Below are positions 48,001-54,000 of a DNA stretch of 64,000 nucleotides, piece by piece. Each line of letters starts with the position of its first letter. Position 1 is the first letter of the stretch. Where the stretch lies: NCBI RefSeq assembly GCF_988243305.1, contig NZ_OZ547138.1; one strand, written 5' to 3'. This DNA is from a plasmid. The position numbers are program-made.

Positions 48001-51000
48001 AAGTGCTTCCTTTGTTTTTAGAATGCGCTTGATATCCATTTCATCCCGCCCGGTCATTCTTTTTCCGGACAAAAGACGCTCAAGAAGCTCCTGTTTCGCA
48101 TCAGGAGAATCTTTGGCGAGATCCATCAGGTTAAGCAAATCTTCACGATCGAGAGGAAAGAAGTATTTTACAAAATACTTGAAAAGCGAAAGAAAGTAGT
48201 ATGCTGTCCATGCAATACAGAAACCGATTCTGAGAAACTCATTGTCAACTATACAGAAATACAGGTATACAATCAGGAGAATAGGTAAAATCCATAATAC
48301 TATAGCTAAAAAAATATATACGGGGATCAGGCGTCTGTATGCCCGTTCATGTTTATTCAGGATGAATAAAATCTTCTCCGCTTCTGAATCACACATAACA
48401 TTCTCTTCCCATTTTTTCTGATACGTAATGTCCACCTGTTATCAGGAGTGTTTATTGCCCAGAAATATTCTCCTGCTGTGCCTGCGTCCTGAGCCACTTT
48501 TGTTCTAATGTCGCCAGTCTGCGACCGGCACTCTGTGCTTCAGAGTCTGAGACCTGCCCTTTGGGGTGACCATCCAGGCCATAACGTGGGACGCCGGCGA
48601 CAGCTGTCCGCTGCAGATATACGCGGCGGGATGTGATGCAGGACACTGCACAGAGCCATTCGTCCATGGTCAGTTCTGTCTCCGGGTGTTCTGCCAGAAA
48701 TGCCGAAATATCATTGCTTATGCCAATTTTCAGGGGAATAAATCCACCACCTTCAGCACGAAGATGAGGAAACAGGGCCTTTATTTTTTCCACGCACTCG
48801 TGAGTATACTCACGGGTCCAGTGGGAGGGACGTGGAAAACGGTGTCTTTTCTTTTTCTTCTTCCTGGCTGGCGCTTCGGGGATATGTGTTTCGACGGCAG
48901 ATGAATTTATTCCGGCGGGGGCTGATTCTGCCGTCTGTTCAGTAAATACAGGTGCGATAATATCTGTTTTTTCGGATAAGGACGGTGGCGAAAAAGTACG
49001 ACGTTTTTTCACCACAATGACGGGAGTTTTCCTTTCTTCCTGATTTTTTCCCATAAATACCTCGGCTGGCTGGTTTTACTCTTTAATAATATCACAATCC
49101 ATAAATTAGTAAATTTCCCATCAGGTGATTTTTCATGGCTAATAAGTCCATTCTCTGAATATTTATACTCGAGGTAGTTACAGTTATGGCGTGACAGTCG
49201 AATTGATATTCTACTGAACCCTGACAGAAACATGGTTGATATATTCTCTCACTTTAATGTTGTCATGATATAAATAAAAACAATTCATTTGAAAGGATAT
49301 CAGAAGAAGATATCGGGGCGCACAGTTCATCTCTGCCTTTGTTTCATGGGGGGTTCTTTGTATATTTTACTTACTGTTTAAGCATGTACATAAGGAGTGC
49401 TTTCATTATGCCAATGATACTTGTAAAGAAGAATCCCCGGGGCAAAGTGATTCGGGAGCTTAGCAGTGAGGAAGAGACTGCAGTAAAGACGGTCTGTGGA
49501 CTGAAAAGGCCAGCAACCATGGCACAACATAACCTGGCCAATGATCTTCTCCGGGAAATGCGTGAGTATGATGCATGGTTACAGTGTGACTGTATTCCGG
49601 GAGATTCGCCGGCCATGAATTTTGCTGCTCTTAAAAACAATACGGGTACTCTTTATCTGTCCAGTTTTAATCATGAGCATGCACCTGAATGCCCCATGTA
49701 TCGTCAGTTATCCGGAAATGAAGAGGAAACATCCTTCGGAGCAAGCCGGCATCCCGTTAGCACCCGTATAAATTACAGAAACTTTTTACCACCTGATGAC
49801 AGTAATTCTGTTATCAGACTGCAGGCCCGCTCTGCTTACCATAATGGTGAGCGCTCCTCCGTTCGCAAGAAACGTCCGCGCCTTGGCCGTTTACTCCTGT
49901 CGCTTATTGAAGATGCAGGGCTGAATAAACTGGATTCCCTGGCTAATCCCCGTATCCGGACTAATTATCGTGAGTGTCTTGATGCCATACGGCAGGTTAC
50001 ACTACAGCAGGAGTATATTCGGGGAAGAGCCTTATCTGAAATTATCCATTTCCGGCCAGGAATGTCTGAAAGGTCTCAGGAGCGGTTAATGGAAACGCTG
50101 GAGAATTCAGAACGACACTGGCCTGCCAGAAGAAAGCATATGTTCTTTCAGATTTTTATGGCGCAGCACATCTGTCGTGATGCTGTGGAAATTCACTGGG
50201 CGAACGGTAATATTCAGGTCATCAGACCTGTGCGGGGGATCAGTATTAATGGTGAAGCGCAGGGCGGAATACGTCCCCCTTACTGGGTTATTCTTGCTTT
50301 TTGCCGGAGTGCCGATGGCAGAATCATCTGCAGTGAAGGGTATGCTCATGCTCTTTATCAACTGACATGTCCGGTGCCTGTGGACAGCAAACTGGAACGA
50401 AACACGCTCACTGCTCTTCTGAATGTGGCCAGCTGGCTTAAAAGAAAGCCAGGTACGCCGGAATTAAGTCTGGAAAGGCCCCTGTTTGATACAGAAGTTT
50501 ATGTTAATGGTGAAAAGAAATATGTACTGCCGGATTTCATTGTCACAGCAAGGGCTCCTGACGGAAAGACGGCCAGAGTGGTCATCGAAACGATGGGATA
50601 TGAAGACAGTGATTACTGCGCGAGAAAATCCAGGCAGCATACCGGCATGAAGCAGATTGGTGTTCTGCATACCGATCCACCGAAATGGCTGGATAATGAT
50701 CATCCCCCTTTTAAGAAACATATGTACGGTGTTTTTATGCATCTCAGGTACTGAGATATTTTGTGGCTCAGTTCTGTAACTTTTCCCGTAACATTGTCTG
50801 TTGTTACGGGAAAGTCCGGTTTTTGTATTGCACCAGAGAATACCCAGACTGTGATGCTGCCACAGTGTCAGCAGGCTTTCTGAACGGTATAACACCACTT
50901 CATGTTAATGATAATTACTATCATTAAATCTTGACATGCCATTTTCTCCTTAATAAATTAGTACTGTATATGTATCCATATACGTAAGCAGTTAATTCAT

Positions 51001-54000
51001 TTGTTTTCCTCAGAGGATGAAGGAGATACCGAATGTCTGACCCTGTACGTATTACAAATCCCGGTGCAGAATCGCTGGGATATGATTCAGATGGCCATGA
51101 AATTATGGCCGTTGATATTTATGTAAACCCTCCACGTGTCGATGTCTTTCATGGTACCCCGCCTGCATGGAGTTCCTTCGGGAACAAAACCATCTGGGGT
51201 GGAAACGAGTGGGTCGATGATTCCCCAACCCGAAGTGATATCGAAAAAAGGGACAAGGAAATCACAGCGTACAAAAACACGCTCAGCGCGCAGCAGAAAG
51301 AGAATGAGAATAAGCGTACTGAAGCTGAAAAACGCCTTTCTGCGGCAATTGCTGCAAGGGAAAAAGATGAAAACACACTGAAAACACTCCGTGCCGGAAA
51401 CGCAGATGCCGCTGATATTACACGACAGGAGTTCAGACTCCTGCAGGCAGAGCTGAGAGAATACGGATTCCGTACTGAAATCGCCGGATATGATGCCCTC
51501 CGGCTGCATACAGAGAGCCGGATGCTGTTTGCTGATGCTGATTCTCTTCGTATATCTCCCCGCGAGGCCAGGTCGTTAATCGAACAGGCTGAAAAACGGC
51601 AGAAGGATGCGCAGAACGCAGACAAGAAGGCCGCTGATATGCTTGCTGAATACGAGCGCAGAAAAGGTATTCTGGACACGCGGTTGTCAGAGCTGGAAAA
51701 AAATGGCGGGGCAGCCCTTGCCGTTCTTGATGCACAACAGGCCCGTCTGCTCGGGCAGCAGACACGGAATGACAGGGCCATTTCAGAGGCCCGGAATAAA
51801 CTCAGTTCGGTGACGGAATCGCTTAAGACGGCCCGTAATGCATTAACCAGAGCTGAACAACAGCTGACGCAACAGAAAAACACGCCTGACGGCAAAACGA
51901 TAGTTTCCCCTGAAAAATTCTCGGGGCGTTCATCAACAAATCATTCTATTGTTGTGAGTGGTGATCCGAGGTTTGCCGGTACGATAAAAATCACAACCAG
52001 CGCGGTCATCGATAACCGTGCAAACCTGAATTATCTTCTGACCCATTCCGGTCTGGACTATAAACGCAATATTCTGAATGACCGGAATCCGGTGGTGACA
52101 GAGGATGTGGAAGGTGACAAGAAAATTTATAATGCTGAAGTTGCTGAATGGGATAAGTTACGGCAACGATTGCTTGATGCCAGAAATAAAATCACCTCTG
52201 CTGAATCTGCGATAAATTCGGCGAGAAATAACGTCAGTGCCAGAACAAATGAACAAAAGCATGCAAATGACGCTCTTAATGCCCTGTTGAAGGAAAAAGA
52301 GAATATCCGTAGCCAGCTTGCTGACATCAATCAGAAAATAGCTGAAGAGAAAAGAAAAAGGGATGAAATAAATATGGTAAAGGATGCCATAAAACTCACC
52401 TCTGATTTCTACAGAACGATATATGATGAGTTCGGTAAACAAGCATCCGAACTTGCTAAGGAGCTGGCTTCTGTATCTCAAGGGAAACAGATTAAGAGTG
52501 TGGATGATGCACTGAACGCTTTTGATAAATTCCGTAATAATCTGAACAAGAAATATAACATACAAGATCGCATGGCCATTTCTAAAGCCCTGGAAGCTAT
52601 TAATCAGGTCCATATGGCGGAGAATTTTAAGCTGTTCAGTAAGGCATTTGGTTTTACCGGAAAAGTTATTGATCGTTATGATGTTGCTGTGGAGTTACAA
52701 AAGGCTGTAAAAACGGACAACTGGCGTCCATTTTTTGTAAAACTTGAATCACTGGCAGCAGGAAGAGCTGCTTCAGCAGTTACAGCATGGGCGTTTTCCG
52801 TCATGCTGGGAACCCCTGTAGGTATTCTGGGTTTTGCAATTATTATGGCGGCTGTGAGTGCGCTTGTTAATGATAAGTTTATTGAGCAGGTCAATAAACT
52901 TATTGGTATCTGACACATAATGATGCCCTTTCATTTTCCTGAAAGGGCTTTGCAGAGTATAAAAATTAAGTAAATGGCAACCACAGGAACTGATATAACG
53001 AAACAGAATAATTCAAATATTGCAGTTAAGCTTCCGCCAACTGGATTTGTAAAGAAGTCTTTTTGCCAGAATTCTTTCCCTGTAAACCTTATTACCATTT
53101 TCTGTATTATCCTCATTGAAAAAGGAAAAGTAATGGCACTGATAATGCATCCGATGAACGCATAAAACATTCTTGCATTTTCCTGGTTATCTTTCCATCC
53201 CAGATAAAAAACTGTAAGAATAATGAGGATTGGTATCAGGCTTTTCAGTAAATACTTTACAGATATATCCAGTTTCATCTGGTTTCTCCTTTATTGTTAT
53301 CGTGTACCGGTGCGTGATAACATAATCACAGCATGATAATAATAATCAATAACAATAAGCTGTGTCACGTTTACATCATGGAACGGAGGTGCTCCTGTGA
53401 CCTTTGAGCAGAAAAAAGGGCACTGTTGCAAAGTTAGCGATGAGGCAGCCTTTTGTCTTATTCAAAGGCCTTACATTTCAAAAACTCTGCTTACCAGGCG
53501 CATTTCGCCCAGGGGATCACCATAATAAAATGCTGAGGCCTGGCCTTTGCGTAGTGCACGCATCACCTCAATACCTTTGATGGTGGCGTAAGCCGTCTTC
53601 ATGGATTTAAATCCCAGCGTGGCGTTGATTATCCGTTTCAGTTTGCCATGATCGCATTCAATCACGTTGTTCCGGTACTTAATCTGTCGGTGTTCAACGT
53701 CAGACGGGCACCGGCCTTCGCGTTTGAGCAGAGCAAGCGCGCGACCATAGGCGGGCGCTTTATCCGTGTTGATGAATCGTGGGATCTGCCACTTCTTCAC
53801 GTTGTTGAGGATTTTACCCAGAAACCGGTATGCAGCTTTGCTGTTACGACGGGAGGAGAGATAAAAATCGACAGTGCGGCCCCGGCTGTCGACGGCCCGG
53901 TACAGATACGCCCAGCGGCCATTGACCTTCACGTAGGTTTCATCCATGTGCCACGGGCAAAGATCGGAAGGGTTACGCCAGTACCAGCGCAGCCGTTTTT

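Follow-up and report, generated by a model that had tools for sequence, protein, structure and literature searches.

Colicin Ib and immunity genes of an IncI1 plasmid and their control sites for Fur and LexA

The stretch of plasmid DNA analysed here, 64,000 nucleotides (nt) of contig NZ_OZ547138.1 (assembly GCF_988243305.1; hereafter the window, to whose numbering all positions refer), carries the colicin gene cib and, converging on it, the immunity gene imm. We read this pair, with very high confidence, as an intact and usually arranged cib-imm module of an IncI1 conjugative plasmid, whose colicin promoter would be locked twice, by Fur and by LexA. The module itself is already known: it is textbook material and present in hundreds of sequenced plasmids. 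The evidence that carries this reading comprises the match of the pore domain and of the immunity protein to their Ib counterparts, a Fur box and a LexA box placed on either side of the cib promoter, and the likeness of the whole locus to published Ib plasmids.

Results

Identity of the colicin and of its immunity protein

Two open reading frames (ORFs), one of 626 amino acids (aa) on the + strand and one of 115 aa on the − strand, converge and leave a gap of 17 nt between them. The features of the two genes are the following.

51033 to 52913, + strand: cib, colicin Ib, 626 aa, with TonB-box region, receptor domain and pore domain; allele with G99E and P297S
51020 to 51025, + strand: cib ribosome-binding site AAGGAG, 7 nt 5′ of the ATG, read from the sequence
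51099 to 51113, + strand: TonB-box region EIMAV, residues 23–27, found in the cib translation
51876 to 52091, + strand: receptor (CirA-binding) domain of cib, residues 282–353 (Pfam Colicin_Ia, 167 bits)
52350 to 52901, + strand: pore-forming domain of cib, residues 440–623 (Pfam Colicin, PF01024, 165 bits)
52931 to 53278, − strand: imm, colicin Ib immunity protein, 115 aa, with three hydrophobic segments at about residues 3–29, 37–58 and 79–115
53286 to 53291, − strand: imm ribosome-binding site AAGGAG, 7 nt 5′ of the ATG, read from the sequence

Over residues 23–623 the colicin can be aligned end to end with the colicin Ia crystal structure 1cii, and it matches the Ia receptor-domain chain 2hdi_B at E = 1e-62. 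What distinguishes colicin Ib from colicin Ia lies in the C-terminal part. Residues 432–626 are identical at 195 of 195 positions to the protein of PDB entry 8iom ('Colicin Ib'), whereas residues 426–626 share only 43.8% identity with the colicin Ia encoded by locus L003, a Salmonella Heidelberg IncI1 plasmid. The immunity protein belongs to the E1-type immunity family PF03526 (Pfam; 32.6 bits, cut-off 25), is an exact match to UniProt IMMJ_ECOLX and to WP_000762570.1 ('colicin 1B immunity protein'), occurs on at least 1000 contigs and has 25% identity to the 111-aa Ia immunity protein. At the DNA level, a 2.5-kb query (window 50900–53400) returned 534 plasmid records at 99% identity or more, annotated as colicin 1B immunity. 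We thus identify the gene as cib accompanied by its cognate imm, and not as cia. The first-pass annotation, made from the sequence alone, had named the pair colicin Ib and its immunity gene, and had taken a C-terminal domain identical to that of Ia as the observation that would make the gene cia; the Pfam domains, the 8iom match and the immunity protein bear the naming out, and at 43.8% identity cib stands.

An NCBIfam search with four proteins gave nothing apart from a match of the colicin to SMC, whose 26.3 bits fall far short of the cut-off of 567 and which is taken to be coiled-coil noise, and an Rfam scan of 50400–53500 gave no RNA family match at E ≤ 1. As to lysis genes, no ORF of 25–80 aa with a lipobox was found within 50600–53420, and none is annotated beside cib and imm in the Ib loci L001 and L002 or beside cia and imm in the Ia locus L003. 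This absence fits the group B colicins, which are without lysis genes; ColIb is released through prophage lysis (PMC7374059).

The difference between the Ia and Ib loci was mapped by pairwise MAFFT alignment of the window with locus L003. DNA identity is about 98% from yagA through the promoter and cib codons 1–426, falls to about 55% from ~52312 to ~53305 and is again 100% across 53329–53418. The diverged part is a single block:

52312 to 53305 (approximate bounds): Ia/Ib specificity cassette, ~1 kb, holding the pore domain, the junction hairpin, imm and the imm ribosome-binding site

The swap of specificity between Ia and Ib is thus assigned, on this alignment, to a cassette of ~1 kb, with the cib promoter and the candidate imm promoter in the shared flanks.

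Two repressor sites at the cib promoter

Upstream of cib, four elements follow one another between the end of yagA and the start codon.

50781 to 50814, + strand: terminator-like hairpin ending yagA, 13 pairs and then a T-run (terminator scan), with a perfect 9-bp core at 50785–50810
50904 to 50922: Fur box of cib, GTTAATGATAATTACTATC, abutting the −35 element on its 5′ side, with 3 mismatches to the consensus
50931 to 50936 and 50954 to 50959, + strand: cib promoter match, −35 TTGACA, 17-nt spacer and −10 TAAATT, agreeing with the consensus at 10 of 12 positions
50962 to 50981: single LexA (SOS) box, TACTGTATATGTATCCATAT, 2 nt 3′ of the −10 element and overlapping the expected transcription start

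The promoter elements are all conserved in Ia, where the −35/−10 match is identical. Fur sites were sought with the 19-bp consensus GATAATGATAATCATTATC, and three matches at 3 mismatches were found in the window against 0.02 expected. The cib box, which lies within the palindrome TTAATGATA-ATTAC-TATCATTAA (50905–50927), was reached in none of 5000 simulations of local composition; its Ia counterpart differs from it at one base and has 2 mismatches to the consensus. No Fur box was found within 250 nt of the start codon in ColE1, ColK, the colicin of the small plasmid M19 or the Arsenophonus relative (at least 7 mismatches in each). A Fur site 5′ of the −35 element of the cib promoter has been published (PMC4675545, PMC3879352), and ColIb is induced by mitomycin C as well as by the iron chelator DTPA, and maximally by the two together (PMC3879352, PMC4675545). 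The Fur box is the published second lock on the cib promoter and sets Ia and Ib apart from the other colicins. The yagA hairpin stands between yagA and this box, and insulates the cib promoter from upstream transcription. Of the three Fur-like sites in the window, the one outside the colicin module (GACAATAATAATCATCATC, 26406–26424, − strand) falls in the pil region, inside an A24 prepilin peptidase gene and close to where a lytic transglycosylase gene starts.

For LexA, the bare pattern CTGT-N8-ACAG with at most 2 mismatches proved uninformative (411 matches against about 253 expected) and was replaced by a weight matrix made from 25 chromosomal E. coli SOS boxes of the kind listed in published compilations, with colicin operators excluded. 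With this matrix TACTGTATATGTATCCATAT scores 14.7 bits and is the best match in the window; about 0.21 matches with that score are expected per simulated window, and 1.3e-4 per given 40-bp interval. Ia has the identical box, in spite of several differences in the bases around it. Double boxes scored as positive controls gave 21.8 and 15.0 bits for ColE1, 17.8 and 18.5 bits for ColK and 14.9 and 11.7 bits for the M19 colicin, each pair being offset by 15 nt. No second box overlapping TACTGTATATGTATCCATAT emerged from the matrix scan, the best candidate having −1.95 bits. A distal GCAGT (50988–50992) was considered as the right half of a second box of the ColE1 kind and rejected, as it lies 3 nt too close; it could, as a speculation, be the remnant of a decayed second box. 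This layout agrees with published work, in which the cib promoter has one LexA binding site 3′ of the −10 (PMC4675545; PMC3879352), most colicins have two (PMC4675545), and both the Pcib reporters and the ColIb protein of the SL1344 plasmid show strong induction by mitomycin C (PMC3879352). SOS control of cib through the LexA site 3′ of the −10 is thus supported.

The first-pass annotation had described the promoter as carrying a CTGT-rich, LexA-box-like sequence and had named a putative SOS operator. A LexA box does begin at 50962 as claimed, but it is one weakish box, with one CTGT and one distal CAGT, and the Fur box at 50904–50922 had been missed. The next-best matrix matches in the window score 12.5–14.1 bits (25670–25689, 45099–45118 and 49647–49666) and are near chance level; among these lesser matches are TACTGTGTATATACGTAGTA at 45099 and TACTCTTTATCTGTCCAGTT within yagA.

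A hairpin between the convergent genes

Where the two genes meet, the sequence can fold into a perfect stem, and a second fold lies just before it.

52925 to 52933 and 52940 to 52948: junction hairpin, GCCCTTTCA-TTTTCC-TGAAAGGGC, a perfect 9-bp stem with 5 G-C pairs and a 6-nt loop
52871 to 52905: second hairpin, AT-rich, 13 pairs (fold of the + strand RNA, ΔG −14.2 kcal/mol), in the last cib codons and of uncertain significance

The junction hairpin has a ΔG of −13.3 kcal/mol on the + strand (cib RNA) and −14.2 kcal/mol on the − strand (imm RNA); it starts 11 nt past the cib stop, and the imm stop codon (52931–52933) lies inside its 5′ arm. It is followed by TTTGCAGA on the + strand and by ATCATTAT on the − strand. 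The window has 19 perfect 9-bp stem registers with a loop of 3–8 nt, each nested register within a hairpin being counted, where simulated windows have 1.8 ± 1.4. The AT-rich hairpin is specific to Ib, being absent from Ia at the same position.

Other loci offer a comparison. Ia has, at the same junction, a hairpin of unrelated sequence, GGCTGTCT...AGACAGCC followed by TTTTT, with an 8-bp stem. A colicin-like gene of Arsenophonus and its convergent E1-type immunity gene have a 7-bp junction hairpin with T-rich tails on both sides. No hairpin was found at the ColK junction, where cka and cki overlap and the lysis gene comes next. The presence of hairpins at the same place in Ia and Arsenophonus, and the lack of one in ColK, favour a function for the Ib hairpin. 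This function is probably that of a terminator shared by the two genes, the main alternative role being the stabilisation of 3′ ends.

A second Fur-like box upstream of imm

The region upstream of imm, common to Ia and Ib, holds candidate promoters on both strands and, over them, a further match to the Fur consensus.

53368 to 53363 and 53344 to 53339, − strand: candidate imm promoter, −35 GTGACA, 18-nt spacer and −10 TATTAT, agreeing with the consensus at 10 of 12 positions
53314/53317 to 53343/53346, + strand: promoter candidates of ybaA (DUF6404), from a consensus promoter scan
53335 to 53353: second Fur-like box, GATAATAATAATCAATAAC, with 3 mismatches to the consensus, reached in 0 of 5000 local simulations

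Where the imm promoter lies is inferred from the −35/−10 match on the − strand, which is outside the specificity cassette, within the flank that is 100% common to Ia. The Fur-like box overlies the −10 elements of the imm candidate and of the divergent ybaA candidates. Its sequence is preserved unchanged in Ia and Ib plasmids, with 100% conservation both in L003, the IncI1 plasmid with Ia, and in pS88; a second ybaA copy of pS88, which is 93% identical and has no imm, also has the box perfectly conserved. In pS88, quantitative reverse-transcription PCR after growth in LB with dipyridyl gave 5.11-fold for cia, 1.10-fold for imm and 5.25-fold for ybaA, none of these changes being significant (PMC3438092). 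The copy of ybaA without imm, together with the higher value for ybaA than for imm, makes ybaA the likelier target of the box. A 2024 preprint asserts that Fur regulates imm, without data. We put forward only tentatively the idea that a Fur site lies at either end of the colicin I module, so that iron limitation would also raise ybaA, and possibly immunity, when cib and CirA are de-repressed. In this plasmid IS26 has removed ybaA, which leaves imm as the sole neighbour of the box. As a lead, this further Fur-like site over the divergent promoters of imm and ybaA is modest but testable.

The IS26 edge, the allele and the plasmid backbone

On the imm side the native sequence, as judged from the uninterrupted plasmid L002, extends to 53418, after which an insertion sequence begins.

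53397 to 53418, + strand: start of ybaA (DUF6404 family), of which IS26 has left 22 nt counted from the GTG, as seen against the uninterrupted L002
53419 to 53432: terminal inverted repeat of IS26, GGCACTGTTGCAAA, start of the IS26-qnrS1...blaCTX-M-15 region and edge of the colicin module

The junction at 53419 lies beyond the candidate imm promoter (53339–53368), and the region upstream of imm is intact. A hybrid promoter formed with IS26 was considered and rejected: an outward TTGCAA was seen by eye in the IS26 end, and the −10 spaced by 17 nt from it, CTCAAA, matches the consensus at only 2 of 6 positions.

Compared with the common Ib allele, cib has two substitutions, G99E (51327–51329) and P297S (51921–51923). 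The former is shared with the IncI1 plasmid NZ_CP145695.1 (p1-S1-KEN-03-A), and the latter, a C>T change at 51921, is absent from it. In the 90%-identity cluster of this colicin, many partial proteins bear the NCBI name 'Tn3-like element TnAs1 family transposase', which hints at mistaken annotation or at chimeric fragments in public records.

The window and NZ_CP145695.1 are collinear and 100% identical from position 1 to 43147; beyond 43147 the window departs from that plasmid at two single bases, both C>T (50697 and 51921), and has an additional 8-bp repeat unit at 63306. That plasmid is typed IncI-gamma/K1, MOBP and MPF_I, and has traY...pilV shufflon, repA, yacAB and yagA. We accordingly assign the backbone to IncI1, and the use that had been made of the module, to anchor the identification of the backbone, holds. 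The 8-bp tandem array (GATAACAA / AACAAGAT) at 63290–63330, near a parA-like gene, has one unit more than NZ_CP145695.1 and may be an iteron- or parS-like repeat of variable copy number.

Discussion

A model of the module can be drawn by combining what was read from the sequence here (which genes these are and how their domains are laid out, where the control sites lie and how strong they are statistically, the hairpin, and the lack of a lysis gene) with what the literature provides (induction through Fur and LexA, the CirA/TonB route and phage-dependent release). A sigma-70 promoter, TTGACA-17-TAAATT, would drive cib and would be kept shut by two repressors, Fur-Fe2+ at the box abutting the −35 and LexA at the single box 2 nt past the −10. 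Since both act on one promoter, full expression would need iron limitation together with DNA damage. Once made, colicin Ib would use its N-terminal translocation region with the TonB box, and its central domain would bind the outer-membrane receptor CirA, while the C-terminal domain would form a pore that depolarises the inner membrane of the target cell. The producer would be protected by the immunity protein, a predicted inner-membrane protein of 115 aa with three hydrophobic segments, probably read from a promoter of its own in the flank shared with colicin Ia plasmids. The 9-bp hairpin at the 17-nt gap, which overlaps the imm stop, most likely ends or stabilises both transcripts, and release, with no lysis gene at hand, would depend on lysis mediated by a prophage.

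Could the gene be cia after all, or an Ia/Ib hybrid carrying a mismatched immunity gene? Some observations do lean that way, as the first 425 residues are nearly those of Ia (418 identical and 7 different, the TonB-box region and the CirA-binding domain included), the automatic NCBI name is 'colicin Ia central receptor-binding domain-containing protein', and the top full-length PDB match is colicin Ia (1cii). However, the 1cii alignment decays beyond about residue 440, and identity as cia is refuted by the 8iom match, by the low identity to Ia from residue 426 onwards and by an immunity protein that is that of Ib. A mismatched hybrid is opposed by the fact that the pore domain and imm sit in one contiguous diverged cassette and are therefore matched. 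We regard either possibility as next to impossible. A larger, though still small, probability attaches to the idea that the LexA-like sequence has decayed or arose by chance, and that in practice Fur is the main control of the promoter. Several points count here against the double lock that we propose: the matrix rests on an approximate set of known sites; an equally good match would arise by chance in about one in five random 64-kb windows when position is ignored; the box is weak, with CAT in place of CAG in its right half-site; and its heterology index, ~10.3, falls just outside the reference set, whose maximum is 9.9. In addition, its 14.7 bits compare with 15–26 bits in the other colicin boxes scored (with the exception of one second box of 11.7 bits), and it is one box where most colicins have two (PMC4675545). 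Yet it stands at the exact position of colicin SOS boxes, 2 nt past the −10, it has remained identical in Ia despite the differing bases around it, and mitomycin C strongly induces Pcib reporters and ColIb (PMC3879352), so that a mainly Fur-controlled promoter appears very improbable. Only slightly less improbable, in our judgement, is a module that is present but non-functional on this plasmid, through the rare G99E/P297S allele or the adjacent IS26. P297S falls in the receptor-binding part and replaces a proline conserved across the Ia and Ib sequences compared, IS26 sits 141 bp ahead of the imm start codon, and, as a further point against an intact weapon, the exact colicin allele is on record once (HHS8764960.1), its activity being only predicted. 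Against this, both ORFs are full length with good ribosome-binding sites, the IS26 junction at 53419 is past the candidate imm promoter, the E99 allele occurs together with the same IS26 junction in two complete plasmids, and an intact cib lacking working immunity would be counter-selected.

The role of the junction hairpin is the part of the cib-imm model where an alternative carries most weight. The first-pass annotation had spoken of a shared hairpin terminator with a 9-bp stem; the hairpin is where it was claimed to be, but the terminator role is inferred, and here too there are observations that speak against it. No U-tract follows on either strand, the tails being UUUG on the cib strand and AUCAUUAU on the imm strand, so that of the features of an intrinsic terminator the G+C stem-loop is present and the 3′ U-rich tract is lacking, and the consensus terminator scan made no call on the hairpin because it has no T-run. 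It is therefore conceivable that the hairpin is something other than a terminator: a stem-loop that shields the 3′ ends of both mRNAs against exonucleases, or a side effect of the C-terminal codons of imm, with termination occurring elsewhere or by Rho. Two further observations are in keeping with this: one arm and the loop code for the imm residues ALSGK plus the stop, and the AT-rich cib hairpin lies just upstream, so that the 3′ region may fold into something larger (folding z = −4.6 for the 109-nt junction). On the other hand, Ia and Arsenophonus have hairpins of different sequence at the same junction with T-rich tails, whereas ColK, which must read through to its downstream lysis gene, has none; this distribution is consistent with termination being allowed only at junctions that have no lysis gene behind them. 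On balance we consider a role other than termination unlikely, if well within consideration, and favour the shared terminator.

If the module is as intact as it appears, a multidrug-resistance plasmid (qnrS1, blaCTX-M-15) would also carry a weapon for interference competition. According to published work, colicin Ib is switched on by low iron and DNA damage, which are conditions of the inflamed gut. A by-product of the comparison is that the Ia/Ib specificity swap could be mapped to a cassette of ~1 kb that excludes both promoters.

The closest relatives of the locus are the cib-imm regions of pColIb-P9 and of Salmonella SL1344 p2, which have the same genes in the same convergent arrangement on an IncI1 backbone with the same left neighbour (yagA - cib - imm); on the right, the related Ib plasmid L002 shows the imm-ybaA neighbourhood. 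Ib loci of the pColIb-P9/SL1344 type share the pore domain (100% to 8iom) and the immunity protein (exact IMMJ_ECOLX), and the layout described for Ib in the literature is matched: the −35 has a Fur site on its 5′ side, a single LexA box follows the −10, and a lysis gene is lacking. From the common Ib loci this plasmid differs in G99E and P297S and in a ybaA cut by the IS26 that brings qnrS1 and blaCTX-M-15. The colicin Ia locus (cia-imm, 1cii) is alike in the 626-aa colicin, the near-identical promoter, the identical LexA box, the identical flank upstream of imm and the presence of a junction hairpin; it differs in the ~1-kb cassette, with a pore domain at 43.8% identity, an immunity protein of 111 instead of 115 aa and a hairpin with a TTTTT tail. 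More distant are ColE1 and ColK of group A, colicins of small plasmids that enter through Tol rather than TonB (PMC4675545). They have a related pore domain (PF01024; 36.0–39.2% identity to an Ia pore-domain query) and LexA boxes just 3′ of the −10, and the ColK immunity gene is likewise on the opposite strand. In contrast to colicin Ib, however, ColE1 and ColK have two overlapping LexA boxes with a 15-nt offset and no Fur box, and ColK has a downstream lysis gene and overlapping cka and cki, with no hairpin at their junction.

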